IMG/VR virus record: IMGVR_UViG_3300045988_071280
DNA: 64,000 nt
Source: a virus
Strand: one strand, 5' to 3'
The notes under the pieces were generated by a model. It was not told the DNA's origin, searched no databases, and saw nothing but the letters and a program-made list of their open reading frames with translations. Numbering within the stretch: position 1 is the first letter of the stretch; each line of letters begins with the position of its first letter. Shown piece by piece: positions 26,354 to 64,000 of the stretch. Both the position numbers and the translations under genes were made by a program.

Positions 26354-26354
26354 T

Positions 26355-29007: not shown

Positions 29008-29399
29008 GTTTTGAAATAGGTTTTAAACCAGTATTAGAAATACAGAAACCTGATGGAGTATCTAAACAAACTGGGATACAGTTTTGTAATTTGATCTCCA
29101 TCTCAGGTAAAGAATCCACAACAGAAGAGAAATTCTATAAACAATGTAAAGCAGCTGCTACTATTGGAACAATTCAAGCTACATATAATTCCTTCCCTTT
29201 CTTAGGTGAAGTAACAGAGCAATTAGCTAAGAATGATCCATTAATTGGAGTATCTATTAGCGGGATTATGATGAATCCTGATATATTATTAAATAAAAAT
29301 ATTCTACGTAAAGGAGCTGAGATTATTAAAGAGCAAAATAATAAAATAGCTAACTTACTAGGAATTAATCCTGCATCTAGGACTACTTGTATTAAGCCT
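29008..29399 (+). CDS. nrdJ: RNR exon 3
   Basis: (C)FEIGFKP...FCNLISI...RTTCIKP|. The lengths of exons 2 and 3 sum to a multiple of 3. Confidence 0.75.
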
Positions 29400-29440
29400 A
29401 AAAATATGATTAAATAGTAGGTTTATAGTAAGACATTTTT

Positions 29441-29448
29441 TAATTTTG
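29441..29448 (+). promoter_or_regulatory. candidate -7 promoter element inside the intron
   Basis: TAATTTTG lies 33 nt upstream of the HNH ATG. Confidence 0.35.
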
Positions 29449-29481
29449 TAGTATTATAAAAAATACTTAAAATTAAAAAAT

Positions 29482-30516: not shown

Positions 30517-30588
30517 TCTATATGGTGACATATAGCAGTTCATAGGAGAACGTATATAAGAGTTGCGTCTTATATAGAATATATAATG

Positions 30589-31686
30589 GATGGAAATATA
30601 AGTACCTTAACTGGAAACACTCCTGGATGTCATGGTCAACATGCGAAAAGATATATCCGGAGAGTTCAGGTTAATAAAGAAGAAGAAGCAGGTAAAGTAT
30701 ACGCTAAATATAATCCTAAAGCAGTAGTAGAATCTGTTTGGTCTAATAATCATACTGATAATTGTATTATGTTCGCAATAGAATCGGATGATAACGTTAA
30801 AACCAAATCGGAATTATTAGGAATTAGACAATTAGAAGTAGTTAAATTACTATATAATAACTGGATTCTTCCAGGAATGGTAGATCCTACTAATCCTGTA
30901 TGTAATAATGTATCTAATACTGTTATAGTTCCAAATCAAGATTGGCATAGAGTAAAAGATTGGGTATGGAATAATAAAAACTTTATTGCTGGAGTATCAT
31001 TTATTCCTTCAACTGGAGACATTACTTTTACACAACCTCCATACTCAGAAGTATTTATTCCAGAAGAATTGGTAGAAATGTATGGAGACGGAGTAATATT
31101 TGCCTCAGGTTTAATCGTAGACGCAGAAAAAACTTTCGGAAATTTATGGAGAGCTTGCGATACATTTAATTATAAAGGGGAGAAGTTATATTCTACTGTT
31201 GAAGATGCTAAAGAATTTATTAAAGAACTTAATGTAACAGAAGATCCCTCTTATTTAAATAAACCTCATTCTGAATGGGTAAAAGCTAATTCAATTCAAT
31301 ATAATAATTGGGTTAAAGTATTATCCACATTGGGATATACAGAAGAATTTATAGATGAAATTTTAGATTCTGACATAGAAATTCCAATTGCAGAAATTCA
31401 GAAGTATTTAGATAAAACAGCATTTACTAATGTAAAAAATCTAAATGCTAAGAGAGATATAATGCGGAGAATGAAAAAATTCGGAGATACATATTTTGGA
31501 GAAGATTATAACACTATGATTGAAGCTCTTAAATATGTACAATTATATCACGATTGGTGTGATATAACTAGAAACTATACTCCTATCGACTGGACTATAG
31601 TTAAATGGAAAAAAGTACTGATCGATGCAGATACAACAGGAGCTCAGGCCTGTTCTGGAGGACAATGTGATATAACTAAAATATAA
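30589..31686 (+). CDS. nrdJ: RNR exon 4 (C-terminus)
   Basis: IKP|DGNISTLTGNTPGCHGQHAKRYIRRV, with a C-terminal CSGGQC cysteine pair. Confidence 0.7.
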   Translation, partial: DGNISTLTGNTPGCHGQHAKRYIRRVQVNKEEEAGKVYAKYNPKAVVESVWSNNHTDNCIMFAIESDDNVKTKSELLGIRQLEVVKLLYNNWILPGMVDPTNPVCNNVSNTVIVPNQDWHRVKDWVWNNKNFIAGVSFIPSTGDITFTQPPYSEVFIPEELVEMYGDGVIFASGLIVDAEKTFGNLWRACDTFNYKGEKLYSTVEDAKEFIKELNVTEDPSYLNKPHSEWVKANSIQYNNWVKVLSTLGYTEEFIDEILDSDIEIPIAEIQKYLDKTAFTNVKNLNAKRDIMRRMKKFGDTYFGEDYNTMIEALKYVQLYHDWCDITRNYTPIDWTIVKWKKVLIDADTTGAQACSGGQCDITKI

Positions 31687-34996: not shown

Positions 34997-35233
34997 TGAT
35001 TTTTTGGCTCTTGTAAAACCTACTTAATTGACGGGAACATCCTTAGAGATTATCCTACTAAATTATAACAGTAATGTATATAATGGTGAGATTAACTACC
35101 TCAGTATAGTAAAAAAGGATAATATTGGACAATCCGCAGCTAAATTTCCATGTATGGAAAAGAGTTCAGAGACTATCTCGAAAGAGAGTACATTTAAATT
35201 ATTAAAATTTATTTGGAAACAGTAGGGTATTTA

Positions 35234-35265
35234 TTTGGACTTATGAATTTTTATGGTTACTTTTG
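35234..35265 (+). promoter_or_regulatory. Bacteroidota-type promoter inside the intron
   Basis: TTTG 35234-35237, a 20-nt spacer, then TACTTTTG 35258-35265, upstream of the GIY-YIG ATG at 35308. Confidence 0.5.
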
Positions 35266-35307
35266 TGTATTGAAATCAATATAAATAGTAACTTAAAAAT
35301 TCGTATA

Positions 35308-36066
35308 ATGGAACAATGTTATTTACCAAATCAAAAAGACAAATTAGTTAGGTTAGGATTTATTTATGCTTTAAAAAATCCTGACACAGGAGAAATTTTT
35401 TATGTAGGTGCTACCGAATCTACTCCAAAAGATAGATTAGCAGGACACTATAATCATTTTATAGAAGCTTTAGAAGGAAAGCGAAAAATGAATAAAAAAT
35501 TTGAATATTTTAAAAAAATTTATCCTAAAACAGCAGATTGGGAAGTATTAAAAATAGTAGAAAATGATTATTTATATAAGATAGAAGTAGAATATATAGA
35601 AAAATATTCAAAACTATGGAATTTAACTAATCAAACTAAAGGAGGAGAAGGAGGAGATACTTTTACAATGCAGGATTCTATTGCTAAAAAACGTATATCA
35701 GAATTAATATCTTCTAAAATTGTTGGGAGACCAAAACCAGAAGGTTTTGGAGAGAATTTATCTAAAGCTAGGATGGGAGGAAATAATCCAGCTGCCGGAA
35801 AAACTAGATATAACGTTGCAATTTTCAATAATAAAGAGGAGTTTATTAAAATTATTCACTACCCCTATGAAATTACTGATTTTCTTGATGGAGTTTTTCC
35901 GGAAGAGCCACATGAAAAACATGCTAAAACAGCTGGAAACGTAATGGCAGGAATAAGAAAAAACCAGAGTAAAACTTCAAAAAACAATGGTTATATATTT
36001 AAAGATGTTTCTATTTGTCCACAAGAAATACAAGATATAGTCCAATCTACAAATGAAAGTTTGTAG
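35308..36066 (+). CDS. GIY-YIG homing endonuclease
   Basis: GFIYALKNPDTGEIFYVGAT..R..GH, with NUMOD3-like GRPKPEGFGENLSKARMGGNNPAAGK. The C-terminus overlaps the S element. Confidence 0.8.
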   Translation: MEQCYLPNQKDKLVRLGFIYALKNPDTGEIFYVGATESTPKDRLAGHYNHFIEALEGKRKMNKKFEYFKKIYPKTADWEVLKIVENDYLYKIEVEYIEKYSKLWNLTNQTKGGEGGDTFTMQDSIAKKRISELISSKIVGRPKPEGFGENLSKARMGGNNPAAGKTRYNVAIFNNKEEFIKIIHYPYEITDFLDGVFPEEPHEKHAKTAGNVMAGIRKNQSKTSKNNGYIFKDVSICPQEIQDIVQSTNESL

Positions 36067-47174: not shown

Positions 47175-50100
47175 TTATTCTTCCGAATTTAATAAATTAA
47201 ACACATTCTGAGTTTGTTTTATTACATAAAAATTCTTAGGAACCTCTTTTCCAAAAGAACTTTCTCCTTTAACTATTCTAATAGTAGAGTCTTTCAGTCT
47301 TTCTAAAAAACTAAGAGCTACTGGAGTATCTAAAGAAAGTCCTAGAGGAGCCCAAAATACAAGTTCATCAGTGGAATTTAATAAAGTTTGTCTTAGAATA
47401 TTCTTAGTTAAGGGATCAAATTCTTCTCCACTTTCTTCTTTATCTTCCATTATTAATCTAAATAATAATGCAAGTAAAGCAGCCCACATAGAATCTGCTA
47501 ATAATTGTCTAGCATTTCTAATTCTATAATCTTTATGTTCTAAAGTTGCATCAGTATCCTTATTTATATAATATTTAAATAAATATTGCATATAATAGAA
47601 AGTACTATTCACCATTCCTTCTATAAATCTTCCAGACCATTCCTTTGCAGGGATATCTGTAACTTCTGTAGTTTCTATTAAATGAGATTCTCCATCCTCA
47701 CCTATCACAGATTTTAAATAAAGTAAATTTCCTTCTTCATCTGTTTTTTGTTTCCATTCTCCTTTAGGTGTTTTATCAGTTCCTCCTAAGAAGAATCTTT
47801 CACGAGTAGATGAGAAATAAGATTTAAATTGGAATAGTATCTTACCTACAAATTTATGTCTAGCAGCAAATGCATTTTCATGATCCATATATCCGAATAA
47901 TGAATCGGCAGAAGATTTTATATTTCTCTTTTCTGCTATAGTATATGCGGAAGGTAATGCTACTGGATTAGATTCGTTAAATTTTAATTCTTCCCAATCA
48001 AGATCATTCTCATGTTCAATATTAAATTGAGTTAGATGTGCGATATAATCTGCTTTTTGTTTATTATATAAAGGATGCGATTTATCTCCAGATGCGAATA
48101 TAGAATATCTCCCATCTTTAGTCCAATCATATATCAATTCTCCATCTTTAGACATATGGTGAGCTTTCAAACAATCATCATGAATCATTTGAGCTACTAT
48201 AAATACCATTCTATTTAAAAAATCTGGAGCAGTAGTAGCCCAATAAGCACCTCTTCTTAATAATCCTTTATAACCTTTTCTATCAGAATTTAATTCGTAC
48301 GCTAACGAATTAGCATCCATTCTAGTCATCCCATAAAAATGGTTTAAAGCTTCTACTAAAGTCCAATTATCAGAACTTACACCGGTATTTCCCATAACTA
48401 TACCATAAGCTTTAGCAGCATCGGCAGTAGTAAAACCATTATCTCCTAACAACCGTCCAGCAGCTCTAGTCATTAGAAGATAAAATCCTTGAATTGGCTC
48501 TCTAACTAATGAATTAAGATTTAATGCCAACATTGAAACTCGTGCAGCAGTAGTAATAGGTTGAAATACTTTATAGAATTTTTGATTGGATTTTTCTATA
48601 GAACTTTCTCCGAATATAACAGTTTTTAAATAAATATCAATTTGCTTATTTAAATTCTCGAAATTAATATTAGTATCATAAGATTGTAAATAGATAGCAT
48701 GTCTTATATCATTAATAAGGGGAAGAATAGTATCAAAAGAAGATTTCCTTATATAAGCATGAACAAATACATCCTCTAATAACTCTAAGTTAGTCTCCCA
48801 ATAAGAGGTATCTTGCTCTGAAAGATATTTTTCTCTAGTAGTTGGAGAGACGTTTAGAAAATTATACATTGTTAAATAATCATTCTTCCCAGCTTCGGAA
48901 TCCTGTTCAATTGTCTCTTCTTGTGCTTTAGTAGCTCTTCTTATATCAACTTGTTCGTTCCATTTATCTTGTATCCACGAAAAGAATCCTTTACTTTTCA
49001 ATTGTGAAAATGCAGTACCTCTTAACAATGGGATATCAAAATAATGTCCACTTTGAATTAATTCTTGAACTGGAGTAGTTTTTATTGCTTCTTCTTCTGT
49101 CAAATTATAATCAACTCCGCGCTTTATTCTATTTACATTCCATAAGAAAGATTTCAACCATTTTCGTTCGGCTTGAGAAAGATCATTTGTCATATCATAA
49201 GGATTCTTTGCTCTAAAATTACGAGCTATTCTTCCAGTAGAATCTCTCTCAAACATATTTTTAAATGCGTTAGTTGAATCTTTAAAAGTCCATCGTTCTA
49301 CTTGAGTAAATCCTTTTGATTTATATAACTCTAACACTCGTTGTAAAGATTTCTCCTTATATTTCTCAAACCATTCACGCATCTTCTGGAATTGTAATTC
49401 AGTTAGATCTACTATATCTTTCATTAAAGGGATCATTTCGGGATTTTCTACATAATACCCTCCTAAGGTCATAGTTTCAGATATGTTTTTGAGGTTGAAA
49501 CTTATTTGACTTATATCATGATCTGAATCGAAATAAATACGTTTATAATGTAGAATAGTTCTAGATATTTGGGAATATAATAAAGATAATCCAGTTGGAT
49601 CGGAATCATAATTATTATCTGCTCTAATAATTAATCTATTTCCAGCTACTTCCCTAATAATCTCTTGTAGTTTTCTTAATTGTTCTATTTTATACTTTCC
49701 TGTCTCATTATCTAATTTATAATTATTATAGAAATCATAAATTAAATCAGAAGCTCCTTTTACTAATTCTGTTCTATCTTGTCCTAGAATAGTTAATAGT
49801 CTTAATTTTAAAGCTTCTATCCTATCTGCAATTATTAATTCTGATTTAAAGTAATTTGTAATACCTAATTCCTTAGATAAAATATTAAAATTATGCGTTA
49901 ATTTATTTATATCTATAGGATAAGATTGTCCTTCTTTATAATTAATTACTTGAATATTTCCTATTTTAAAGTTACTAAAATAATCATGTAATTCATTTAT
50001 AACTAACATTGTCTCTAATAACTTAGCGTTTCCTACAGTATTGGATAATAGATTTTTTAATTTCTTATATTTAGCCTCAGATCCTAAATTTCCAAAGATA

Positions 50101-51647
50101 TTATGAGATCCATTATTCCAATTAAGTTTTTTTGTTAAATTTATATCTGTCATAGATATAATATCTACTATGTTATTAGCTACATCTCTAAACGCATAAA
50201 TTCCTATTTCTGCTAATTCTGGAAGGTCTAATACTTCATATCCTGGATTATCTATGTAATTACAAAATACTCTAGTTAGATATGTATTTGCTTTTTGTGG
50301 AAGGTATTTAAATTTATTTTTATCTTCTAAAGATTCAGAAGTCTTTTTTAAATAATCAAACTCTTTCCATAAAGTAAAATAGTAAGATTCACTTCTATCC
50401 TCCATTTTTTCTTGATACTCTCTAGCTTTTTCTAATAATTCTTCTTTAGTTGGAGCTTCTATTACGGGAATATCTTGTCCCTTTCTTTTAGATATATAAT
50501 CATTAAAGAACCATACTTTTCTATAATTATCATATTTAGCCACCCTCTCTACAAATTCTTTCGGAGTTTCTTTAGATAATTTCCCAAAAGCGATTTCTGA
50601 GTATTTAGCCACATTTTTAGTAGCTTCTGTATTATAACTTACTTCTGATACATTTGCTCTAATATGTTCTTGTACTATCCTAGTTATATATCCATTAGGA
50701 TAAGATAATCTTTGCATAGATTTTCCTTCGGTAGTTTTGTTTATAGGTTCTTCAACTTTATAAGATGTAAATGTCTCATTATTATAATCTATATCCGATA
50801 TAATAATAGGAACTATATTTAAAGAAGCTAACTTTACCCCAATTCCATTATTAGCTAATAACGCTCTATATGCAGCTAATTGATAATCTATTGTTAATTG
50901 TTTAGAAGAATACCATGTTTCATATGGTTTATTTGAGATTTTAAAATCATAAATTTCTACATTTCCTCTTTCATCTATAGCTAATAAATCTAATCGTCCT
51001 ATGATAGGATCAGATTCATCATCAGAAGTTTGTAGTGTTAATTCCGGGATAAATTTATACTTTTTTCCTTTACTAATTTTAGATTCTAAATTCTTAAATG
51101 TAAAATATAAATTTTCGATTGTATCATATGGAAGATCAACAATCTGAGATATTGTATTTAAATCCTGATTTTTGAAATATAACTCAGCTACTTTATGTAC
51201 TTTATCTCCAATCTTTGCTAGATGTCCCCAATTTTCTATATCAAATTCTATCTGTCTCTTTGCGTCTTCTTCTGATAATCCTTCTTTAGTTAAAAGTTTT
51301 AACTGATTCTTTTTATATTCCTCTACTTTAAATTCTGGAATTACACGATCTCCATTAGAATTTAGCCAAGTAGTTATAGCTGTAGTTACTCCTAATCTCT
51401 TAGGGGTAACTACTTCATTTTCTTGCGTTGACTGATTAAATTTGGACTCTTGTACAGTAGAATTTAACGCTAAGAGTTTATTATATATAGAATCCTGAAT
51501 AGTATTACTTTCATCAAATACCGCATCTCCATATTTATTATAATAGAGCATATTTCCATAATTCTTGGCTATGAAAGCATCTAAGTCTCGTTCAGAATTA
51601 AAGGAATGCTTAGATCCGTTTATTGTTAAAAAATATTTACATGCCAT
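47175..51647 (-). CDS. 1490-aa protein with N-terminal PD-(D/E)XK nuclease-like motif (possible virion/ejected protein)
   Basis: GRLDLLAIDERGNVEIYDFKIS near 50942-51000. The virion role is inferred only from position beside the RNAP-like gene. Confidence 0.6.
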   Translation of the reverse strand: MACKYFLTINGSKHSFNSERDLDAFIAKNYGNMLYYNKYGDAVFDESNTIQDSIYNKLLALNSTVQESKFNQSTQENEVVTPKRLGVTTAITTWLNSNGDRVIPEFKVEEYKKNQLKLLTKEGLSEEDAKRQIEFDIENWGHLAKIGDKVHKVAELYFKNQDLNTISQIVDLPYDTIENLYFTFKNLESKISKGKKYKFIPELTLQTSDDESDPIIGRLDLLAIDERGNVEIYDFKISNKPYETWYSSKQLTIDYQLAAYRALLANNGIGVKLASLNIVPIIISDIDYNNETFTSYKVEEPINKTTEGKSMQRLSYPNGYITRIVQEHIRANVSEVSYNTEATKNVAKYSEIAFGKLSKETPKEFVERVAKYDNYRKVWFFNDYISKRKGQDIPVIEAPTKEELLEKAREYQEKMEDRSESYYFTLWKEFDYLKKTSESLEDKNKFKYLPQKANTYLTRVFCNYIDNPGYEVLDLPELAEIGIYAFRDVANNIVDIISMTDINLTKKLNWNNGSHNIFGNLGSEAKYKKLKNLLSNTVGNAKLLETMLVINELHDYFSNFKIGNIQVINYKEGQSYPIDINKLTHNFNILSKELGITNYFKSELIIADRIEALKLRLLTILGQDRTELVKGASDLIYDFYNNYKLDNETGKYKIEQLRKLQEIIREVAGNRLIIRADNNYDSDPTGLSLLYSQISRTILHYKRIYFDSDHDISQISFNLKNISETMTLGGYYVENPEMIPLMKDIVDLTELQFQKMREWFEKYKEKSLQRVLELYKSKGFTQVERWTFKDSTNAFKNMFERDSTGRIARNFRAKNPYDMTNDLSQAERKWLKSFLWNVNRIKRGVDYNLTEEEAIKTTPVQELIQSGHYFDIPLLRGTAFSQLKSKGFFSWIQDKWNEQVDIRRATKAQEETIEQDSEAGKNDYLTMYNFLNVSPTTREKYLSEQDTSYWETNLELLEDVFVHAYIRKSSFDTILPLINDIRHAIYLQSYDTNINFENLNKQIDIYLKTVIFGESSIEKSNQKFYKVFQPITTAARVSMLALNLNSLVREPIQGFYLLMTRAAGRLLGDNGFTTADAAKAYGIVMGNTGVSSDNWTLVEALNHFYGMTRMDANSLAYELNSDRKGYKGLLRRGAYWATTAPDFLNRMVFIVAQMIHDDCLKAHHMSKDGELIYDWTKDGRYSIFASGDKSHPLYNKQKADYIAHLTQFNIEHENDLDWEELKFNESNPVALPSAYTIAEKRNIKSSADSLFGYMDHENAFAARHKFVGKILFQFKSYFSSTRERFFLGGTDKTPKGEWKQKTDEEGNLLYLKSVIGEDGESHLIETTEVTDIPAKEWSGRFIEGMVNSTFYYMQYLFKYYINKDTDATLEHKDYRIRNARQLLADSMWAALLALLFRLIMEDKEESGEEFDPLTKNILRQTLLNSTDELVFWAPLGLSLDTPVALSFLERLKDSTIRIVKGESSFGKEVPKNFYVIKQTQNVFNLLNSEE

Positions 51648-51651
51648 ACTG

Positions 51652-54600
51652 TTAACATTTTTCTAGTAATTGTGTATTTGGATTTTTAGAATTTAATAAA
51701 CTACTTTTTATATTAGTAATATTCCTGTTCTTAAATGCTTCTGATACATTTTCTGGATTAAATAAAGAGAATCTTTTATTTCCGGCAGAGAGTAATAAAC
51801 TATTAAATTCTGTTATTATTTTTTCAATTGGCATCTTACTTAATTCCCTACTTAAAGTTTCTGATGTTTTTTCTGGAAGAGTATTTAAATCTAGAGATAA
51901 CGTAGAATCTAATACTTTTAAATATTCTCCAAAGAAATCTGTAGAAGATAATAAATTATTTATATTAAATTCCTCACTACTAAATACTCCACTTAAACTA
52001 TCTGCTATAAATTCTACGAAAGCTTCTTCTTTAGCATCATTTAATGTTCTATTAGTAAGTATATTTCTAAATCTCTCATTAAATTCTGGGAGAGTAGCAA
52101 CTTTATCTAGTAAAGAGGAATATAAAGAATAATTCTTACTTCTCAATGCTCCCATTATTAAATGCATTAATTCATGTAATGGAGAAGAGATATCGGCTCT
52201 ATTAATATTTACATATATTTTCCCATTCCAAATAAACGCTCCTGCTCTAGAAAACGAATCAGCTAAAGTACTATTTAGATTTTCAGAATCAACCAATTCT
52301 TGAATTTTAGCATCATCTATTACGTTAATAATATTATTATATGTTGAATTAACATTTTCTATAACCCTATTTAGAATTTTCTTTTTATCAAATTTATCAT
52401 AAGTATCAGTAAAGTATTCTACCTTTTTTATTTGAGGAACCTCATCTGTTATAGATAAATTCTCTAATTCTTTTTGTCTAGTTTTATTTATTGGATAATA
52501 TAATTCTGAAATAAGATATTTTCCGGATTTAATATCATTAAAATTTATATACCAAGAGTTATTATATATCTCTCCATTTAATCCTACTATTTCAGACTCT
52601 AAATTGATTCCTTTATCAGTTATAGATTTAATTCTAAGATATTTAGTAAATTTATCATTATACTTAATCTTTACAACATCATTTACTTCTATGATATTAA
52701 TAACTTGTTCTGGAGAACGTTGATATATTCTAGGATCGTAATAAAATCCAGTCGAATCATTTACCTGAATTCCGGTTCTTATATTCTTTAACCCATAAAT
52801 TTTAGTATCTTTTACATTATTAGCTTTTATATATTCAGAAGTGAGATCTATCAACTCTCCATTTTTAATCATATCTAATATTGTTGGAGTTAATAGTGTT
52901 ACTCTACCATGAGGAAGAGTTTTCTTTTTTGAATCTTGATAACTTTCTTTAAATTCTCTCTCTGTAATATTCTTAGGAATTACATACACTGCCTCTTGTT
53001 CAATTACCCAATCTTGGGATTTGTTCAGGAGGTTTTTCTTTTTCAAGATTTCTTCTAGAGAATAACCATAAGTGCTATGATTTAAATCATATAATCTACT
53101 TAAACGTTTTTTATTATATTCAGAAATCTCTTTATGTCCAATTATTCCTAATTCATAATTTGGATTTATAGCAAATCCGATATATTCTAATTGCTGTGGA
53201 GATACTATTTTCCTAAAAGATCTCCCTTTTAAATATCCAGATCTATAACTACCTGGAACAATAATAGTTCCTGTTATAGGATCATAATTAGATACTACTC
53301 CAATAAATGTTATATCATTTTCTTTAAATCTAATAATATCTCCTCTTTGTAATTTAGCAGTTTCTTGTTCTGCATTAGAAGAGTCTATATTTATAATATA
53401 ATATAAATCTTTTAAAGGAATATAGTTAGAATTAGGATCAAATACTATTTTATCATCGACTCTAGTAAAAGCTTTACTAGCATTCTCTTTTTTAATATTT
53501 AAATCTTCTACTAATTCTAAATCGGAAGTATTATTATAATGTATAGCTGATAGTGATGGAATATTTATTCTCTGTCCTTTAGAATTTTCTGATAATGGAA
53601 ATTCTGTTTTTAAATCTACAAATCCTATTTTAGGAGCAGAGTCATTTGTTGTTCTATTTAAAAAGTATATTCTATCCCCACTTATCCCAACTACTATATG
53701 TTTACTAATAACAGGTGATCCATCAGTTCTTTTTAAATCCCATTCAATAGAAATAGAGTCACCAATACGTAAAGATCTAACTTTATCTCTTCTATATTTA
53801 ATAACAGATTCCCTATCTAAATTATCAGAGAAGTCTCCTTCTAATTTCCGATAAGGTTGTTGGTCAGATTTTAGAATATTTAAATTGAACCAGATAGATT
53901 GATATTTACTTTTATCTTTAGTATTTAAAGAATAAGTATCATAATCATTAATGAACTGATTATATATATTATCTAAATCCGGATGATTTTCTTTAGTAAA
54001 TATCACTGTCTCTATATTCCGAAAAGGAATTTTTTTAGTAAAGTATTTACCATCTTTATTCTTTAAAGCTACTTCTACTATTGTACCTATAGTTCTAATT
54101 ACAGGAGCATAATATGTAAAAGAATCCCATTCACTATTCTCATCCTCTTTATTCCAAGATCTTAATTTAATTATATCATTTTGACGTAATTCTTGGGTTA
54201 TAGTAGCATTAGTTCCGTTAGAAACATCTAATTTAAATCCTGATTTTCCTACTGTGTAATACTTGAATGAGAGTCCTTTTCTGTCGAATCCTATAGATTT
54301 AATCAGTGGTTGATTATTATAATCTTCTGATTCAATATTTCTTTCATAAGTATCTCTTATATTCTTTATTAAATCTTCCGGAAGATTTGGATCTTTCAAT
54401 GCTCCATATAACTTTCTAAATACAATTTGTTTGTTTTTTTCTAGAGATAATTTAACTAAATCAGTATAAGATATAGTAAAATGTCCTATATTAGATCCGT
54501 ATTTATTAACTAATGTGATAAATGTTTCCCCATTTCTATTCTTCCAAACAGATTGAATTGGATGATATTTAGCATAAGAAAAATAATCATCATCAAATTT

Positions 54601-55845
54601 ACCGTATATTATATTCTTATCTCTATTAAAATTTGGGATTAGTAATAAATCTCCTGGGACTAAGGAATATAACTGAGCTTCTGTGGTTAATTTAACAGGT
54701 TCTGAGTAATTTAAATTATATAAATCCTTCTTAGGATTACCTTCCGAATCTAATACTGTTGATTCATAATTCTTCCAGATTATTTCTGATATTTGTTGAT
54801 AGGATACGTTTTTAGATTTCGGGATTTCGAGTTCTATATAATAAGAATCATTTTTACCAACGAAAGGAACATTATCATATTCCCATCTATTATTTTCTCT
54901 AGAAAAATAAAAGAAATAATTTTTGTTAATTTTAGATACATTTCCATCCCATATTTCTTCTTTGTGTGTAGAATGATTATAATATTTTGTACCAACTAGA
55001 GGATATCTATTATTTAATGGATTTATAATTTCTAACTCTTGATTTGATCCTTGGATAAAAGGATTTATATCCATAGAAAATAATCTCCCAATAAACTCAT
55101 TAAATAAATCAGAGTTATTTATATTTAAAACATCTCTATATTTAGGTTCTGATACTAAATATGCAATAAATTCATTTAAGTCATAACTAGATCCTTTAGA
55201 TACTTTATTAACAAATTCCTTTATATAAGGATCTTTATCCTGATTTTGTTTAGCAGTAGTATATATATTATAAGCTATTTCATTTACTCTCTCAAAATTA
55301 GGATCAGATTTATTTATTTTAGAATAATATAAATGAAGTAGTTCGTGATATAAATCTCTAAGAGTAGCTTCATTAAATATTCCATTAGTTTTTAAGATAA
55401 TAAATTCATTATTTAATAAAGTCCCTCTAACATCTACATTTCCATCGATATTTAATGATTCTATATCTTCATCTAATAATAATATATTTGGTTGAGATGG
55501 ATTAATAGCATTCATATCTATTAACTTATTAATTAATAGAAGAAAATCTTCCTGTAAAGATTTATTAGGTACATAAGAAACTAAAGACCTAATATCATTT
55601 ATAGTGGCGTTTCCGATTAAAGGTTCTCCATTAGAATATACTACTTTAGTAGATAAAAGATTTAAATCTGAAAGAGTACTTAATAATGTATTTAAAGAAT
55701 CTATATCTAATCCAGAAATAGCCTCACTTAAACTAACTGCATTAACTTCGTCATATGAATTTAAGTTGGTAGGAATAATCCCACCAACTTTTTCTTCTCC
55801 ATCTACAATATATTGTATTTCTATGTTACATCCCATATTTAACAA
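51652..55845 (-). CDS. 1397-aa protein with two HExxH zincin-like motifs
   Basis: HELLH at 55333-55347 and HELMH at 52162-52176. The start overlaps the stop of the upstream gene. Confidence 0.6.
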   Translation of the reverse strand: MLNMGCNIEIQYIVDGEEKVGGIIPTNLNSYDEVNAVSLSEAISGLDIDSLNTLLSTLSDLNLLSTKVVYSNGEPLIGNATINDIRSLVSYVPNKSLQEDFLLLINKLIDMNAINPSQPNILLLDEDIESLNIDGNVDVRGTLLNNEFIILKTNGIFNEATLRDLYHELLHLYYSKINKSDPNFERVNEIAYNIYTTAKQNQDKDPYIKEFVNKVSKGSSYDLNEFIAYLVSEPKYRDVLNINNSDLFNEFIGRLFSMDINPFIQGSNQELEIINPLNNRYPLVGTKYYNHSTHKEEIWDGNVSKINKNYFFYFSRENNRWEYDNVPFVGKNDSYYIELEIPKSKNVSYQQISEIIWKNYESTVLDSEGNPKKDLYNLNYSEPVKLTTEAQLYSLVPGDLLLIPNFNRDKNIIYGKFDDDYFSYAKYHPIQSVWKNRNGETFITLVNKYGSNIGHFTISYTDLVKLSLEKNKQIVFRKLYGALKDPNLPEDLIKNIRDTYERNIESEDYNNQPLIKSIGFDRKGLSFKYYTVGKSGFKLDVSNGTNATITQELRQNDIIKLRSWNKEDENSEWDSFTYYAPVIRTIGTIVEVALKNKDGKYFTKKIPFRNIETVIFTKENHPDLDNIYNQFINDYDTYSLNTKDKSKYQSIWFNLNILKSDQQPYRKLEGDFSDNLDRESVIKYRRDKVRSLRIGDSISIEWDLKRTDGSPVISKHIVVGISGDRIYFLNRTTNDSAPKIGFVDLKTEFPLSENSKGQRINIPSLSAIHYNNTSDLELVEDLNIKKENASKAFTRVDDKIVFDPNSNYIPLKDLYYIINIDSSNAEQETAKLQRGDIIRFKENDITFIGVVSNYDPITGTIIVPGSYRSGYLKGRSFRKIVSPQQLEYIGFAINPNYELGIIGHKEISEYNKKRLSRLYDLNHSTYGYSLEEILKKKNLLNKSQDWVIEQEAVYVIPKNITEREFKESYQDSKKKTLPHGRVTLLTPTILDMIKNGELIDLTSEYIKANNVKDTKIYGLKNIRTGIQVNDSTGFYYDPRIYQRSPEQVINIIEVNDVVKIKYNDKFTKYLRIKSITDKGINLESEIVGLNGEIYNNSWYINFNDIKSGKYLISELYYPINKTRQKELENLSITDEVPQIKKVEYFTDTYDKFDKKKILNRVIENVNSTYNNIINVIDDAKIQELVDSENLNSTLADSFSRAGAFIWNGKIYVNINRADISSPLHELMHLIMGALRSKNYSLYSSLLDKVATLPEFNERFRNILTNRTLNDAKEEAFVEFIADSLSGVFSSEEFNINNLLSSTDFFGEYLKVLDSTLSLDLNTLPEKTSETLSRELSKMPIEKIITEFNSLLLSAGNKRFSLFNPENVSEAFKNRNITNIKSSLLNSKNPNTQLLEKC

Positions 55846-57962
55846 TTTATAATAAGTTTTATTTTATTAAGTCTCATTAGATCATTTAGAAGTTCAACTG
55901 TCTTAATAGCTTTTTCAGATTTATTAATAGTTTCTTTTAATTTATAATTGTAATTACTTCTTATTAGATAATATCTCTCATCTCCTAAAAGTTCTACATC
56001 CTTATAGCTCTTATTCTTATTATCATTTCCTAATCTTTCTTGTAATTGATATTTACCTAAGTTCTCATTATATACTTTTACATATTTATTATTTGAAACA
56101 AGAGCTTCGAAACTATCTTTAATTGGAGCCATTCTAAGAAGAACATCATCTATATTAACATCATCCATTGTTACTTTATCACTTTTTGAATCATAAATTA
56201 CTCCCGGAGTTATAGTATTTAAATCTAGTCCTCCAATGTATTTAAAGTAATCTACAATTAAACTTCCCGGATTAAATACTGATCCTTGTAATACTTTTAA
56301 TATACTATCTTGTCCTTTTCTTCCTTTATGAGTAATTAGATTATATATAAAAAACAAGTCAGATAATTTAATACCCCTAAATTCAACATTTTCAATTTCT
56401 CCAAATGCTGAAACTTGTTTATCAAATTCAGGATTGTTTATAGTAGTAACCATATTTATAGATGGCCTATAATATATATAATTAGATCCATCTAATTTAG
56501 AAGTATTATCAGTTATAATTAATCCATTTAAAAATGCGTTATTAACTAACTGCGATCCAAAAGTCATTACTCCTTTAGAATTAATTGTATATCCACTCTT
56601 TAACATTGGAATTACATAAGATTCCATATATAATTTAAAGGATGCTAAACCATCATCATTAGATAAAGAATAAGATGTTTGCTCAGTAGCGGTAAGCATT
56701 TCCCCATTTAAGAAATAATTTTGGCCTTTAGGAACTGAAATAGATAAATTTTTATTTTTTAAATATTTTCTAATTATTAATTCATCTATATAATCTCTAA
56801 TAATATTTAGTTGAGATTCAGATAATTTATTAGGCATAGTAATTTTACCAATTCTCCTTCTCATTATTATATTTTCTAAATTATCTATAATAGCGTTTGA
56901 TAATGCATATTTAACACTTCCTAATTTAGAATTTTGTTCATTTATATAATAAGCATTAATAAACGATTTATAATGTGGAAGAGAATTTATTAAATCAAAT
57001 ACATTTATTACAGACTTTATTAAGTTATAGAATTTAATAACAGACTCTGTATAATCAGGTTGTTCCAAGAACTTAGCTATATCAAACTTCATACTAGAAA
57101 AAGTTCCATTTGAAGACATTTTATCTAGAGCATCTCCAACTATAGAAGATAATTCTTGGTCTGTATATATATTCCCAATATTAGGATTATATTTTTTTAA
57201 TGCTCCAATGAAATCATTAGCTGTATCTCCAGTTAATTGAAGTTTATCTAACCCGTTTTGAATTAATGTATTAAAGGACTTACTGAAATTATATCTATCA
57301 TATTGCTTAGTCTTTATACCTCCATTAATTCCTAAAATTTGACCTAACGTAGCTATTTCTTTTGCTCCAGTGTAAGCTTTTACAAAGGTAGTAAAATTTG
57401 TTTTAGATTTTACTGATGAATCAAATAAATCTTTTAAATCCTTAAATTTCTTCACTTGTTTAAAATATCTAATCAAACCCTGCACTACTTCCTCAGAAGA
57501 TCTAACTAATGCTAATTCATCCCACTCTGACATAGAATCTAAGAATGTCAAAGCATACTCTTCATCAAGAAATCTCTCATTAACAAAATTATATTTAGTA
57601 GTTTCGAGATCATTGATAATTTCGTTTATATCATTTGATGTTAGTTCATTAAGTTTAAATGCGGAGATTATCTTAGAATTATATAATGTATTTAAATATA
57701 ATGAAACAGATTTTACATATCCTTTCCCAATAAAATTTGTAAGTGATGGTCCTTTTTCTATATTTCTTAATGTAGAATCTATAGTGGCGTATTGATCGTA
57801 CATTCTATTAACTGTAGCTGCTTGAACTATAGCATTAACCTCTGAACTAGTCATAAGATCTGAGATATTATCAAATGATAAGCCTTGGATTAATAAATAT
57901 ACATATACTCCAGCTAGATCGGGACCAGCATTAATCTTTGATAAGATCAATTCTTTAGCATT
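55839..57962 (-). CDS. giant RNA polymerase-like protein, exon 3 (707 aa)
   Basis: Begins NAKELILSK directly after intron-terminal G 57963. The tracked TTG at 57965 is an artefact. Confidence 0.65.
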   Translation of the reverse strand, partial: NAKELILSKINAGPDLAGVYVYLLIQGLSFDNISDLMTSSEVNAIVQAATVNRMYDQYATIDSTLRNIEKGPSLTNFIGKGYVKSVSLYLNTLYNSKIISAFKLNELTSNDINEIINDLETTKYNFVNERFLDEEYALTFLDSMSEWDELALVRSSEEVVQGLIRYFKQVKKFKDLKDLFDSSVKSKTNFTTFVKAYTGAKEIATLGQILGINGGIKTKQYDRYNFSKSFNTLIQNGLDKLQLTGDTANDFIGALKKYNPNIGNIYTDQELSSIVGDALDKMSSNGTFSSMKFDIAKFLEQPDYTESVIKFYNLIKSVINVFDLINSLPHYKSFINAYYINEQNSKLGSVKYALSNAIIDNLENIIMRRRIGKITMPNKLSESQLNIIRDYIDELIIRKYLKNKNLSISVPKGQNYFLNGEMLTATEQTSYSLSNDDGLASFKLYMESYVIPMLKSGYTINSKGVMTFGSQLVNNAFLNGLIITDNTSKLDGSNYIYYRPSINMVTTINNPEFDKQVSAFGEIENVEFRGIKLSDLFFIYNLITHKGRKGQDSILKVLQGSVFNPGSLIVDYFKYIGGLDLNTITPGVIYDSKSDKVTMDDVNIDDVLLRMAPIKDSFEALVSNNKYVKVYNENLGKYQLQERLGNDNKNKSYKDVELLGDERYYLIRSNYNYKLKETINKSEKAIKTVELLNDLMRLNKIKLIINC

Positions 57963-58285
57963 CAATTATGTTACTGTTATATCGTTTCCATATAACATCT
58001 CTATATTTCTATAGAAGTTCTGACTATATCTTAGCCAATAAGGCTCTCCCCATTTCGGAATTACTAATTCCTACGATACTCGATTCTATTTGTTTAAATA
58101 GTCTTTCTCTAGTCGATGCTCTTTTATCCTATTAGGATACTTAGATCAGGATTATCCAATCTTTATACTTGTTACTATACCTGAGTAATTAGTTCAGCCA
58201 TTTAAATATTACTATTTAAATTTAGTATATAAAGCTCTAAGGATGTTCCCTGAGTTAAAGGAGTTTTTTACAACAAACCACGCAT

Positions 58286-59353
58286 TTAATTAAAATATTT
58301 AAGTTTATATTTCATTTCTGGAATAATATAAGGTAATATCAATTCTTCGAAGTGTTTTCTGCTTTTCTCTTTGATATAAAAAAGATTCCAATTTTTGTCT
58401 TTTACAATTCGAATAGTGGTTTCAATATTAAATTTAGTTAATAACCACTTAGATAGTAGACTACATTCCTGTAAAGTAAAGGAACATGTAGCAATAGTCC
58501 CATTCGAACTCCCATCATCCATAAACCAATAAGCCAATGCTATTGGATGATAGATTTTGGATAGATACTCTTCTGTAACAGTTTTTACTTTATTTATATA
58601 AAGAATGTCATATATATTAGTGAATATGGGATGACTATAACTATTTCCTCTATACGTTTGATAAACATTTCCAGTTCTCGAATCTGGGGAAGGTGTTTCT
58701 AATCTATATGCTCCCATAAATTCCCCTAATATCTCAACCTTCTTCATAAATAACGCCTTTTGTTTGACGGAATGTACTATTGTTAGTCTTGAATTATTAT
58801 GTCTATTACTCTGTGGATGTGATAAATTTAAATCTCCTAAAAGAGAACCTAAAATCATTTGTTCCTGTTCTTCCGTTAGAGAGACATCTAATTGAGAGAA
58901 ATATCTTTGTTGTTTCAAATTTAATATTCCTCTATGTCTCCTAACAGTAGGAATAGAACAATTAAAATATTCAGCTAATTGTTCATCGGAATATCCAGAC
59001 TCAAATAGGTCTATTAATTCTGGATATTGATCTTCTGTAATAGACTTTAAAGATCTAGGTTGTATTCCTAATTTTCTAAGATGAAATCCTATAGTTTTCC
59101 CACTTTTACCTAGAATTTTTCCTATCTCTTCTGCTGTTTTTCCTTCTTCATAAAGAGATTTTATTTTTTCTAAATATTCCTTATCTACTCTAGTTTCACC
59201 TTTTCTAGATCTTCTAGTTACATTAGCTTTTCTTAAAATGTCCTGAATTGTTCTAGGGTTTTTTCCTTCTTTTTCAGCGATTTCTTTTGCTTCTAATCCT
59301 GAGTTGTACATATCTACAACTCTTTGAATGTATTCTTCACTACGTTTTTGCAT
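58286..59353 (-). CDS. LAGLIDADG homing endonuclease with three N-terminal HTH repeats
   Basis: ILGSLLGDLNL and AYWFMDDGS motifs, with repeated ..EIAEKEGKNPRTIQDILRKANVTRRS-type HTH units. Confidence 0.8.
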   Translation of the reverse strand: MQKRSEEYIQRVVDMYNSGLEAKEIAEKEGKNPRTIQDILRKANVTRRSRKGETRVDKEYLEKIKSLYEEGKTAEEIGKILGKSGKTIGFHLRKLGIQPRSLKSITEDQYPELIDLFESGYSDEQLAEYFNCSIPTVRRHRGILNLKQQRYFSQLDVSLTEEQEQMILGSLLGDLNLSHPQSNRHNNSRLTIVHSVKQKALFMKKVEILGEFMGAYRLETPSPDSRTGNVYQTYRGNSYSHPIFTNIYDILYINKVKTVTEEYLSKIYHPIALAYWFMDDGSSNGTIATCSFTLQECSLLSKWLLTKFNIETTIRIVKDKNWNLFYIKEKSRKHFEELILPYIIPEMKYKLKYFN

Positions 59354-59386
59354 AAAATTTTATTTGATTAAAAATTATTATTTATG

Positions 59387-59394
59387 CAAATATA
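59387..59394 (-). promoter_or_regulatory. candidate -7 promoter element for the intron endonuclease
   Basis: TATATTTG on the minus strand, 33 nt upstream of ATG 59353. Confidence 0.35.
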
Positions 59395-59451
59395 GATATT
59401 ATATTTTATTATTCCTAATGATTTCAATAAATATTTTGACGGCTTTGGATC

Positions 59452-60507
59452 AGTTGCTGCCGAGATTAAACTTGAGATAACGAGAGATTTGTCTTCTTGA
59501 AATCTATTTTGTGTAAGATCTATTGCATCTTTCACACTAATACTTTTATCTCTAGCTTCATTTAAAAGATCATATACAAACTCAATATCATCAAGATTAA
59601 TGTTAGCCAAACTATTTGTGAATAATTTAATGAGTTCCCCATCACTCTTCCCTTCATTTCCAGGAATATTTTTATAAATCTCAAAAACATTATTGAAATA
59701 TAAATTTGATTTTAATAAATCTTCTACAGTCAATCCTTTTTCAGCTAATTTTCTTATTTCCTGATTAAAGTACTGAGTTGCAGCTAAAAATACTTTTTGT
59801 CCTACAGCACTTATACCAATAACCTCTTTTCCAGCCATATTTTCGAAGAATAAGTTCCATTTAACAGACGGACAAAAATCAGTAACTGTTTTTGCATAAG
59901 CTCCAGCTTCTGATTTAGCAGCAGCAGCTTGTGGATCTCCCATACTAATAGGTGATTCAGCAGCTACAAGATTTTTAAAGTTATCGGAGATCTGATATAT
60001 CTTATTATATACGAAATTCTTTGTAGCGGATAAAAGTTTATTTGGACTTATTTCTTTAAGGTGTCTAGATATATCAATATCTAAATTCTCTATCATATTT
60101 GATATAAGTATTCTGGCACTTTCTATATCCTCATTCCTTGATTTATCATCTGAATTTTCTTTTATATAATTTAAATCATTAACTAAATCAGGATTGTAAT
60201 ATAATTGTATATTAGTTTGTTTGAATCTATCTACCTTATTTAAAACGTCTACAGCTAATTTTAATCTAGTATTATCCCCATCATATTCTCCGTTTAAGAT
60301 AGATGAGATTTCAGAAGTTATATCTATATAAGGTATTTCCGGATTTATTTCAGAAGTTATTGTATATTTTAAATCTGAATTTGGAAATGGTAATTGTTTT
60401 GAGAGTTCAAATGATTCATTATCTCTATAATTAAATAACGATGACCATGCTTCATAAATTCCATTTTTATTTATTAAAGGCATTGTCATGTAGACTTTAT
60501 CAATATC
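59452..60507 (-). CDS. giant RNA polymerase-like protein, exon 2 (about 352 aa)
   Basis: Starts DIDKVYMTMPLINK immediately after intron-terminal G 60508. The 3' end is uncertain (see intron rnap-i2). Confidence 0.65.
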
Positions 60508-60844
60508 CGTTTGACCTTTATATTTTCATATAAAGACTGACTATATCATCACTTTTAAAGTGCCTCCCGCTTCGGATTATTTAAATCCTACTCTACTAAG
60601 TTCTATTTAAATATTAAATAGCTTTTCGATAGTCGATGAACTTTTCTCTTATATAAGAGACTTAGCTGCGGATTACCCAATCTTAACACTTTTTACTGTA
60701 CTGAGGTAATTATTCTCACCATTTAAATATTACTATTTAAACTTAGTATATTAAGCTCTAAGGGATTTCCCGCAATTCAAGAGGTTTATTATAGTGATTA
60801 CAATTTTATACTGTCGTCTAACTCAAACTTAAAAATTTAGACCA
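60508..60844 (-). mobile_element. ORF-less group I intron rnap-i1 (337 nt)
   Basis: A perfect 9-bp P1 forms between exon AGTGATTAT (60853-60845) and GTAATCACT (60801-60793). Q GGGTAATCCGCAGCTAAG, R GTTCATCGACTATCG, S GATGATATAGTCAG. Ends ...GGTCAAACG|GATATT. Confidence 0.85.
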
Positions 60845-63800
60845 ATAATCACTACCTTCCAGCCATGTTTGATACAAGCTGACATAAGCTTCATTACTTT
60901 CTGCATCAGAAAATCCTACTACATCCATTGCCATAATAGACTGAAATGCTTGTGCAGGAATACGATTCGCTGTTATTTTTAAACTCTCAATAAATGATCT
61001 ATATATCTTCTTAGAATCTCTTTTGATTCTTTTATTTATGTAATTATTATATTTATCATTTAACTCTTCTATACTACTATTATCTATATCTAATTCTTCT
61101 CCCAATCTTGAATCTGTCATATTTATATAATCTCTTAACTCTTTAATATTATCAGAATTAAAATTATACCATATTCCTATATAATCGTCAGAAGAATTAA
61201 ATACATTAACTAAATTCCCTAAATTAGAAAGATCTACAACAATTACTTCTTGAACTATTCCATTACTAGTATCCTGATAAAAATGAAGTCCAGATGTTTT
61301 ATATACAGCTTCTCCATTTTCATTTAATCTCCATTCTTCTCCATCTATAACTTCTGTTAATATTTCTATTGGAGTTAGTGAAGATATATAATTTTCAGAA
61401 CTAGGCTTATTTATAATAATTCTAGTATTATCTAAACTATTCTTTAAAAATTCTATATCATTTGGAAGAGGATCTGATTTAGCTTTATTATATGTTCTTA
61501 ATAGTTTCTGTCTAAAGTACTCCCCATCACTATTAATAATATTCGCAATATTATCTCCAGTTCGTAATCCGAATATAGATTGATATACCTTAGATATTAC
61601 AGCCTGTGCTCTTTTTATATTTAAATCATGTATTCTTACTCCTTGAAGTCCTTCGCCAAATTCTATTATATCATTATTATCTATAATTGTTTGATATTCA
61701 GGCATTCTAGGATCTAATAACATAATATTCTCATCCAACAATCCAATGTATCTATTAACAAAGTGTTGAAGTGCTAGAATTTCCTCTTTAGATGCTTTAG
61801 ACTCTCTTAATCTAAACATATCTTCGATTATCGGATGGTCATAAATATTATATTTCTTATTTACTCCATCAATACTCCAAGTAGCTCTAAAAGGTTGAAG
61901 TTCTTTTCTGATTCCTTTTAAATTAGTTACTGTAGTATTTAAATTTCGATAATGTTTAAATTTATCATAAGTATTTATATCCACCTGTTCTCCGGTAGTA
62001 GGATCTAATATAATATCGCCAAACTCTATTAAATCCGTAGATATTTCTTGTGTTAAATTTCCTGTTTCTAAATATCTATCTAAACCAGATTTAAGAATAT
62101 TTCCATTTTCATCAGTAAAAGAATAATAACCAGCTTCATTAGCTATATGTATTAAATCTTCCTGAGAATAATACCCTCTTAAAACATTTCTATTAGAATC
62201 AAATAAATTCTCAGATCCATCAAAATAATAATGTTTTATAGATCCATAAGAAGGAATCATTACAGCTCCCATACCAGAGAAGGTTCTTTTAATACTATCA
62301 GAGTTCATTTTAGATGCTAACATAGTTATAAAAGAACTATTTATACTTCCGGAACTAAATGGAATTTTAAATCTTAAATCTCTAGCATTAAATAATTCAT
62401 TATTTAAATTCTCCTCAAACTCTCTTGCAGCTTCTTCTAAATAACCAGTAATTACTCCATCTCCAGAGCTCCCTTCGAAGGCTTTAATAGTTGCTTTAGC
62501 TAGAAGTTTATATAATAATGTTTTATTAGCTTCTCCTAATTCTGTAAGAGTTTCTAAGTTATTAGCTTGATTATGTGCTTCAAAATACTTCTTTAAAGTA
62601 GTATTTACTACAGAACCTAAAGCTCTATAAGCTGCATCAGCTAAATCTGATGTATATCCATTAGCTGCTAAAGTACTAATAATCTGAGTAGATTCAGTAA
62701 CAGTAGATAAATCAGCATGGTGATCTGCATCCATTTGAATACCCATGAATTGTGTACCAACTCTACCATAGGATAAAGGAGTATCATCGTATCTAGCACT
62801 AGCTGGATTTGTATTAAACGCTCCAACTTTTATTGATGTTCCATTTGCTAGATAATGTATATCAGAGTATTTAAGAGGTTGATATATATAATTCTGATCT
62901 AGTATTACTCTTAATTTTCTTTGTTCGTCTAATATATAACTAGAATCTTCTGGAATATTGTTAAATGTAAATGGAAGATCTTGTTTAGATATAATTGTAT
63001 TTAATAAATCTAAATCACCATTAACCATATTTAATAGATCTCTCTTAGTTATATAATATCCGGTTTTATTCATAAACTGTACTGTAGCATTTACAGAAGC
63101 CTCTCCTTTATCTCCGGAATTAGTTAAATAAGGATCTAAAGGATTAGAATTATCTAATGAATAAGAATACTCTCCACCTAGAGCTTTCCATAATTTATAA
63201 TTACTATCTATTACTACAGTTCTTGTTACATTTTTACTATTTTGAGTATCTCCTCCGTTTTTATTAACTCTTCGTTCTATAATATTATAAGTATTATTTC
63301 CTAGAGATTCTAAATCAATTATTCTATAATATTCTCCATTATTCGTATTATAATAATATAAATCCTCGGATATAATATCTCTAAGATGACGTTTATTACC
63401 ATTAAAATCTTGCATTAAATTAATAATAGGAACATCCCATTTTCTATCAGTCATTTTTTGCAACAATTTAACTTTCTCTGGAGACTTTCTCATTCGATAA
63501 TTAGTTATAGAGAATATAGCACATTTCATTAATAACCCATTACCAAATTCAGGATCTACATTATATCCAAAATTCTTTCTATTATATCCAGCACTAGAGC
63601 TAAACATTGAATTATTCTCTAATACATTCTGAAATGGATTACATTCCATAGAGCCATCTAATACCTTTACATTATCAGTCTCCCCAGAAGGATTAAATAC
63701 AGGAGCTTCTATATCTTTGATAATTGCTACATTTATAGTTGGAGTTGTTCCTTCTAATGCTTTTTGATAATAATTGTGTATAGTAGCTTGCATAGCAACC

Positions 63801-63997
63801 ATACGTTTATATTGAGCTAATAATCTATTAGCATGATCCCGGATAAAATATTCCGGATTTATAGATCCATCGGAATTTAAATAATACACACCTCTTAATT
63901 TAGATGGATGTGCATAAGGTTCTCCTACACTTACTTGAAGGAATTGGTTAGATAAGAACCCATCTAAAAAGAAATATTTTTCTAATATAGGATTCAA
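60845..63997 (-). CDS. giant RNA polymerase-like protein, exon 1 (N-terminus lies beyond the window)
   Basis: Open to the window edge. The C-terminal part NRIPAQAFQSIMAMDVVGF...SLYQTWLEGSDY resembles the catalytic double-psi beta-barrel leading into the metal-binding motif. Confidence 0.7.
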
Positions 63998-64000
63998 TTT

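Follow-up and report, generated by a model that had tools for sequence, protein, structure and literature searches.

A Group I Intron at the Metal-Binding-Loop Codons of a Putative crAss-Like Virion RNA Polymerase Gene and Its Recurrence among Relatives

INTRODUCTION

Phages have long been known to carry group I introns in conserved codons of their essential genes. Those in td, nrdB, and nrdD (sunY) of T4 and in the DNA polymerase genes of the Bacillus phages SPO1 and Bastille lie in highly conserved codons of genes for nucleotide metabolism or polymerases, are IA-like with P7.1/P7.2 helices, and have optional endonuclease open reading frames (ORFs) in peripheral loops. Here, we describe a group I intron, termed intron A, that splits the codons of the DxDxD motif in a gene for a giant putative RNA polymerase (RNAP), located on a 64,000-nucleotide (nt) stretch of viral DNA from the IMG/VR record IMGVR_UViG_3300045988_071280 (the whole stretch is referred to as the window). 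Intron A differs from the T4, SPO1, and Bastille introns by its host gene, by a P1 helix that encloses an extra hairpin (in a loop of ∼43 nt), and by having no P2.

In Pseudomonas phage PhiPA3, a group I intron with the HNH endonuclease gp210 is found in the gene for a virion RNAP (vRNAP) beta subunit, right after two conserved aspartates, and a role of gp210 in competition has been shown (Birkholz et al. 2024, PMC11620839). The window resembles this case, with a group I intron in a putative phage vRNAP gene, beside conserved Asp codons of the catalytic region, and with intron-minus alleles in relatives. PhiPA3, however, is a nucleus-forming jumbo phage with a multisubunit RNAP (the split gene encoding a beta-like subunit) and an HNH endonuclease, whereas the window has a putative single-chain crAss-like RNAP, a break within a beta'-type DxDxD motif, an ORF-less intron copy, and LAGLIDADG endonucleases in its relatives.

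Zeta-group crAss-like phages are described as containing up to 14 introns per genome, and a LAGLIDADG intron appears in the drawing of their transcription block (Fig. 3 legend in PMC7886860). The window shares with this group of gut-type phages (Yutin et al. 2021, PMC7886860; Babkin et al. 2025, PMC12386605) dense group I introns and an intein in core genes, and its relatives have contigs of up to ∼190 kb; the likeness rests on intron and intein density, the genes for the large terminase subunit, the major capsid protein, and the portal protein lying outside the window. Unlike here, the introns in the Zeta papers were found via endonuclease domains, and no split DxDxD, ORF-less ribozyme, or insertion-site cluster is described there. 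Our literature search found no description of a DxDxD split, an ORF-less ribozyme at this place, a trigger-loop intron, or a cluster of insertion sites.

RESULTS

The split DxDxD motif

We looked into the minus-strand ORF at 60818..63997, whose translation runs ...YVSLYQTWLEGSDY / ...AYVSLYQTWLEGSDY and continues with WSKFLSLS, encoded by eight intron codons, before a stop. Exon 1 ends with the codons GAT TAT (D-Y) at 60850-60845. In exon 2, DID is not preceded by a start codon, the first ATG being located 6 codons downstream. Joining TAT (60845) to GAT (60507) keeps the frame and yields LEGSDY|DIDKVY (LEGSDYDIDKVYMTMP), corresponding to an insertion in phase 0, and the span 60499-60850 brackets exactly the five codons D-Y|D-I-D. 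The predicted ligated RNA reads ...LEGSDYDIDKVY..., with the predicted junction GGTAGTGATTAT|GATATTGATAAA, i.e., GGTAGTGATTAT|GATATTGATAAAGTC (60845|60507).

The junction shows no indel in at least 30 uninterrupted homologues, which have LQGSD[YFL]D[IV]DK[AV]Y there. Both G-x-D-x-D-x-D (G2133, D2135, D2137, and D2139 in the numbering of the homologue P0001) and the upstream R-I-P-x-Q-x-x-Q-S-x-M are invariant in 23 divergent full-length proteins and likewise in a 12-member alignment. A first-pass annotation, made from the sequence alone, had proposed that the DxDxD motif exists only after removal of an intron (DY|DID) and had pointed to the Asp triad as a feature to verify in homologues: the reading frame and the gap-free uninterrupted homologues bear out the former, and the three aspartates are indeed invariant in the 23 full-length proteins. 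Its statement that a ribozyme sits inside the active site holds at the level of the gene and in no other sense.

The exons in the window add up to 1052 + 353 + 707 = 2112 amino acids (aa), and the gene extends past the window edge, exon 1 continuing for ∼1,070 further codons beyond 64000 according to the homologue comparison. With the spliced 2112-aa sequence as a query, we retrieved 58 protein clusters (P numbers). The uninterrupted full-length homologues that cover the query have 3,009 to 3,694 aa, and the closest ones have ∼3,160 to 3,180 aa; they include P0001 (3162 aa, 57% identity), P0003, P0008, and P0011-17. P0002, which corresponds to the product of the exon-1 ORF (2,130 aa, 97% identical), comprises 1,261 member sequences. 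The size of 2110+ aa given in the first-pass annotation agrees with the portion inside the window, whereas the whole protein would have ∼3,170 aa, judging by the homologues.

Boundaries and structure of intron A

The 5' splice site follows U60845 (...CTGGAAGGTAGTGATTAT|TGGTCTAAA... on the minus strand, with GATTAT at 60850-60845), and the 3' end, ...AAACG with the terminal G60508, is followed by GATATT from 60507 (...ATAAAGGTCAAACG|GATATTGATAAAGTC...). This minus-strand reading reproduces the splice sites proposed earlier (exon 1 up to TAT at 60845, an intron ending in G60508, and a next exon starting GAT ATT GAT AAA). The 9-bp P1 helix proposed with them is also recovered, as eight Watson-Crick pairs and a terminal U.G at the splice site: AGTGATTAT (60853-60845) pairs with GTAATCACT (60801-60793), ending in U60845.G60801. 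Such P1 pairing occurred in the first 120 nt of 90 of 200,000 intron shuffles (chance of ∼4.5e-4), so we do not regard the observed helix as a chance match. The internal guide (see Table 1) contacts both exons, its 3' part (60801-60793) forming P1 with the exon-1 end AGUGAUUAU and its 5' part (60807-60802) forming P10 with the exon-2 start GAUAUU (5/6 pairs here, 6/6 in most relatives).

When 60490-60860 (371 nt) was scanned, the Rfam group I model RF00028 matched 60517-60840 on the minus strand with 59.1 bits (gathering score, 50; E = 1e-14), with the core strings AAUUGCGGGAAA, UAAUCCGCAGC, UUCAUCGACUA, and GAUGAUAUAGUC each in its place. We drew the structure (P1, P1a, P10, P3-P9, P7.1, and P7.2) on an alignment of six natural short copies, namely, intron A of the window, the copies of loci L009, L011, L025, and L002, and the ORF-less intron B of L016. 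In this alignment, 93.5% of the cells are paired, 28 of the 86 pairs have changed on both sides, and none of 500 shuffles was as good; as a control, sliding the partners by 1 to 3 columns left 38 to 50% of the cells paired. Within the P3/P7 pseudoknot core, P7 is invariant across the six copies and hence uninformative for covariation. The minimum-free-energy fold recovered P1a, P3, P4, P5, P5b/c, P6a, P7.1, P7.2, and P9 unaided (z, -3.1). There is no ORF of ≥30 aa inside the window copy. We considered an intein and ruled it out, given the stop 8 codons into the insert and the presence of the ribozyme core. Based on its sequence and predicted structure, intron A is a phage IA-like group I intron with P7.1/P7.2.

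Intron A in related loci

We surveyed 77 IMG/VR loci and three Logan/ENA loci (L numbers). At least 37 of them are uninterrupted (an intron-less form of the site is AGTGATTATGATATTGATAAA), and 26 loci (21 distinct sequences) as well as L025 carry intron A at the identical phase-0 site, all ending ...G|GATAT. Furthermore, 16 of the 58 protein clusters are ORFs that stop right after GSD[YF]. Intron A is not unique to this genome but is one of a widespread site-specific family in its relatives. The guide and the exon covary among these relatives (GAUUAU/GUAAUC, GACUAU/GUAGUC, GACUUU/GAAGUC, and CCGACUAU/GUAGUCG); the covarying exon changes are synonymous or exchange Tyr and Phe, and many compensations are also found in P3, P8, and P9.

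The introns at this site measure 333 to 337 nt (ORF-less), 441 nt, ∼1,006 to 1,086 nt, or ∼1,745 nt. In the long copies, there is an ORF for a LAGLIDADG_2 endonuclease of 233 aa (E = 5e-26; L007/L044 type), one for a zf-FCS zinc-finger protein of 207 aa, or both, as in L006 and L007. Since L007 contains the intron type of the window with both ORFs, the window copy would be an ORF-less derivative or the ancestor. Of the traits of homing introns, patchy presence and absence at the site is observed, and an intron-encoded endonuclease is absent from intron A of the window. The 207-aa ORF (L001, L006, and L007), located in the P5 region, has an N-terminal zf-FCS domain and a weak match to DUF5889 and belongs to no classical homing endonuclease family.

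Similarity to crAss-like virion RNA polymerases

We then compared the protein with gp66 of Cellulophaga phage phi14:2 (PDB 6VR4; sequence from GenBank KC821624), a giant single-chain vRNAP of 2,180 aa encoded by an uninterrupted gene, in which the trigger loop spans residues 1598-1636 (Drobysheva et al., bioRxiv 10.1101/2020.03.07.982082). The sole DxDxD of gp66, 1361-DFDID-1365, is found in the context ...YRIPNQGQSS...GSDFDIDKMYVMLP, and its counterpart in the window is NRIPAQAFQS...GSDY|DIDKVYMTMP. An hhalign comparison of the family motif region with gp66 (1314-1374) gave a probability of 91.9% and an E value of 7e-7 over 60 columns, with RIPxQ...GSD[FY]DIDK[MV]Y and its aspartates in register. 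Second in conservation among the family motifs is ISALLSAATDNAKEL, which is trigger-loop-like, contains (D)NAK, and lies ∼250 residues downstream, as in gp66; it aligned to gp66 1602-1658 (E = 2e-5; probability, 76%), which falls in the trigger loop. A weak colinear match covered gp66 1529-1551 (E = 0.33), within the bridge helix (1529-1559).

The first-pass annotation had noted a likeness to the metal-binding motif of two-barrel RNAPs and had suggested structure prediction as a check. An AlphaFold model of spliced residues 1-1160 (predicted local distance difference test [pLDDT] score, 77.8; predicted template modeling score, 0.74) had as its best Foldseek match in the PDB the phi14:2 vRNAP, 6vr4_A (E = 2e-3; probability, 1.00; 1093 columns), followed by bacterial beta' chains at E values of 0.09 to 3. 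In BFVD, the same model matched giant crAss-like virus proteins (E = 6e-14 to 1e-6). The hhalign, Foldseek, and BFVD results all support the proposed likeness. gp66 differs by its size and its uninterrupted gene, and the sequence similarity is at the motif level; unlike gp66, the protein of the window would have ∼900 residues between its two putative barrels.

Database searches returned little else: PHROGs and Pfam yielded no family for any exon, and phmmer with the junction region found nothing relevant among the PDB sequences. A tblastn search of 50,697 GenBank phage records retrieved only two unannotated "Bacteriophage sp." records, and a megablast search of 24 kb against the GenBank phages gave no match. 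In summary, the sequence comparisons strongly support a relative of the crAss-like vRNAPs at the level of motifs.

Intron B in the trigger-loop-like motif

The core of a second intron in the gene, intron B, is 82% identical to that of intron A, with compensatory changes in P3, P4, and P8. Its junction is set by the invariant SAATDNAKEL of the homologues and is predicted to be GCAGCAACTGAT|AATGCTAAAGAA (59449|57962). P1 of intron B, placed by positional analogy with intron A, is GCAACUGAU/GUUUGUUGU with 8/9 pairs; a search that demanded perfect pairing for this helix found none. The LAGLIDADG protein encoded in intron B has N-terminal helix-turn-helix repeats and matches PHROG homing endonuclease families. 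An ORF-less version of 377 nt is present in L016, and the ORFs of three protein clusters (P0005, P0010, and P0039) end at the intron B position. As intron A splits the metal loop and intron B splits the motif that aligns with the trigger loop, both catalytic hallmarks are interrupted.

Insertion sites around the catalytic loop

Among the relatives, four insertion positions (the site of the window and three others) lie within ∼20 nt and are occupied by at least two intron lineages. L008, L010, and L055 (∼9372) contain a different intron of 1,457 nt, with a 363-aa LAGLIDADG ORF, 6 nt upstream (GS|DYDID), and their exon 2 is identical to that of the window over the stretch compared. In L059, L061, and L073 (∼8433), an intron is inserted 3 nt downstream of the site of the window (GSDYD|IDK). 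In L025 (9353-9935), two Rfam-confirmed introns (62.3 and 50.7 bits) flank a 16-nt micro-exon, CCAAGGATCGGACTAT, coding for the first half of the catalytic loop, (L)QGSDY. As a side observation, the ORF of the downstream-site intron contains TGA codons in frame, a hint that TGA may be recoded to Trp in that phage.

Other introns and inteins in the window

The coordinates of the polymerase gene and of the other features are listed in Table 1. In total, at least seven group I introns and one intein are present in the 64 kb. A default Rfam scan reported 3 of the at least seven introns, all on the plus strand; the AT-rich introns whose peripheral inserts are long came to light only in scans limited to a few hundred bases. 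A quick marker for these introns is the motif GATATAGTC, present 7 times versus 1.0 expected.

The polymerase gene is directly followed, at 47175-55845 on the minus strand, by two giant ORFs (1,397 and 1,490 aa). These ORFs lack Pfam matches, have a single weak PHROG match (exonuclease, 9.7e-6), and probably represent the remainder of a crAss-type "transcription block."

Table 1. Positions of the polymerase gene, its introns, and other interrupted genes in the window
Feature	Position	Strand	Description
Exon 1, giant putative RNAP gene	60845..64000	-	1052 codons in the window; from translation
Exon 2	59449..60507	-	353 codons, GAT ATT GAT AAA (DIDK) to ...SAATD; from homologue alignment
Exon 3	55839..57962	-	707 codons and stop; first codons AAT GCT AAA (NAK)
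Split catalytic motif	60499..60850	-	D-Y at 60850-60845, D-I-D at 60507-60499; contiguous only after predicted splicing
Intron A, group I	60508..60844	-	ORF-less, 337 nt; RF00028; helices P1, P1a, P3-P9, P7.1/P7.2, P10
Internal guide of intron A	60793..60807	-	5'-AAAAUU-GUAAUCACU-3'; pairs with both exon ends
Intron B, group I	57963..59448	-	1,486 nt; paralogous to intron A; between SAATD and NAKEL
LAGLIDADG homing endonuclease ORF	58286..59353	-	355 aa; Pfam LAGLIDADG_2, E = 8e-30; in intron B
Ribonucleotide reductase gene in pieces	26343-31686	+	Three group I introns, HNH ORF, intein
Ribonucleotide reductase group I introns	27083-27309, 28728-28957, 30256-30535	+	Rfam-confirmed
HNH ORF	29482-30516	+	In the ribonucleotide reductase region
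Intein	Piece 27315-28739	+	Intein_splicing and LAGLIDADG_3; ribonucleotide reductase gene
Family A DNA polymerase (PolA) pieces	4580-5938, 7173-7796	+	LAGLIDADG_3 ORF 6020-7105 between them
Group I intron match	7735-8079	+	46 bits, just under threshold
Partial group I intron match	35024-35184	+	Followed by ORF 35263-36066, with GATATAGTC at 36034

DISCUSSION

With a probability of about 0.88, we propose that the window contains part of the gene for a ∼3,170-aa single-chain, two-barrel RNAP of the crAss-like vRNAP type, in whose Mg-binding GSDY|DID loop a selfish group I intron separates, in phase 0, the Tyr codon from that of the second Asp. The sequence data show what kind of intron this is, its boundaries, its covarying structure, its recurrence at the site, and the homology of the protein; actual splicing, packaging of the enzyme in the virion, and homing are what we infer from it. 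Mobile introns are known to favor the best-conserved stretches of essential phage genes, and the split DxDxD is a further example.

Assuming standard group I chemistry, the guide would hold both exon ends in the pre-mRNA through P10 and P1, free guanosine would attack after U60845, and the released 3'-OH would attack after the terminal G60508, so that the ligated message would restore the three aspartates. Intron B would be removed likewise from SAATD|NAKEL, and active polymerase would be made from the spliced mRNA only. A spliced mRNA would be needed because the exon-1 frame stops 8 codons into the intron and exon 2 lacks a start before DID. The intron would be found at this very site because endonucleases and guides that read invariant codons can spread among divergent relatives, while imprecise loss would be lethal. 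As the window copy lacks an endonuclease gene, it would be a passenger, possibly immobile on its own or shielding the site from the endonucleases of relatives.

Several results weigh against this proposal. The Foldseek TM scores to 6vr4_A are only 0.25/0.14, at an E value of only 2e-3, and a second model (spliced residues 940-1560) is poor (pLDDT, 65), with 6vr4 at E = 0.17. Because of the low TM scores and the poor second model, our confidence in a crAss-like vRNAP at the level of the fold is moderate. A profile of 12 full-length homologues retrieved nothing relevant from the PDB sequences, and the putative first-barrel region gave no hhalign match to gp66. Packaging of the polymerase in the virion is assumed from homology. 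A search with junction-spanning peptides for spliced products matched only ORFs that end at the intron. Lastly, neither the default Rfam scan of the whole window nor a 3.7-kb scan (E ≤ 10) calls intron A, which we attribute to the ∼43-nt P1 loop with its own hairpin, the long AT-rich P5 extension, and the P7.1/P7.2 inserts; the Rfam filter misses related loci in the same way.

The selfish character of the intron could be questioned, as introns in the catalytic loop may be kept because they are useful, either as immunity, by destroying the sites that the LAGLIDADG endonucleases of co-infecting relatives would cut, or as a splicing throttle on the virion polymerase. The crowding of four insertion positions and at least two lineages into ∼20 nt, with L025 having two introns around its micro-exon, would fit this explanation, as would the coexistence of endonuclease-bearing and ORF-less copies in the clade and the precedent of PhiPA3 gp210, where endonuclease copies act as weapons. 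However, nothing separates such a benefit from plain selfish persistence, and the introns throughout other genes of the window fit a general infestation, so that we hold an adaptive role to be possible, with odds clearly in favor of selfish persistence. A related idea, which we put forward tentatively and consider rather unlikely, is that the ∼20 nt of catalytic-loop codons form a contested homing hot spot, where endonuclease copies would be weapons against intron-less co-infecting crAss-like phages and ORF-less copies would persist as uncuttable. If true, interference competition of the PhiPA3 type would operate in the phage group that is the most abundant one in the human gut.

Decay is far less probable: intron A could be inactive and the polymerase gene dead, in a defective phage or a nonviable variant assembly, as the window copy has no endonuclease ORF, one mismatch in P10, and an Rfam score just 9 bits over the threshold. 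Yet no core helix is disrupted, pairing is kept by compensatory changes in four independent ORF-less copies (window, L009, L011, and L016), the three exons are all open and conserved, and the membership of the P0002 cluster points to an abundant, replicating lineage. Least probable of all, and very unlikely in our view, is a split gene whose exon-1, -2, and -3 polypeptides, made from unspliced pieces, assemble like the split beta/beta' of some phages and cyanobacteria: the gene callers of public assemblies list the pieces as separate genes and many ORFs of relatives stop at GSDY, but this explanation fails because the break would divide a five-residue metal loop (leaving a single Asp on the first chain and the other two on the second), no start codon precedes DID in exon 2, and what lies between the exons is a group I ribozyme that covaries and has a guide pairing with the ends of both; close relatives, moreover, have the protein uninterrupted.

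The selfish intron that we favor has practical weight for annotation and offers a good experimental handle, and it will hold no surprise for specialists. The catalytic motif of this family is unfindable in many genomes unless ORF-less ribozymes are recognized, and surveys that rely on endonuclease domains would overlook intron A. Because ORF-less introns are missed, gene calling turns the giant RNAP genes of these gut phages into sets of seemingly unrelated hypothetical proteins. The locus provides precise, testable splice junctions in the enzyme that would start infection, and it indicates that the metal loop and the trigger-loop-like motif, the most conserved of the catalytic elements, are repeated points of convergence for mobile introns. 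With this locus, a natural system would be at hand in which to ask whether competition among crAss-like phages is mediated by intron endonucleases.

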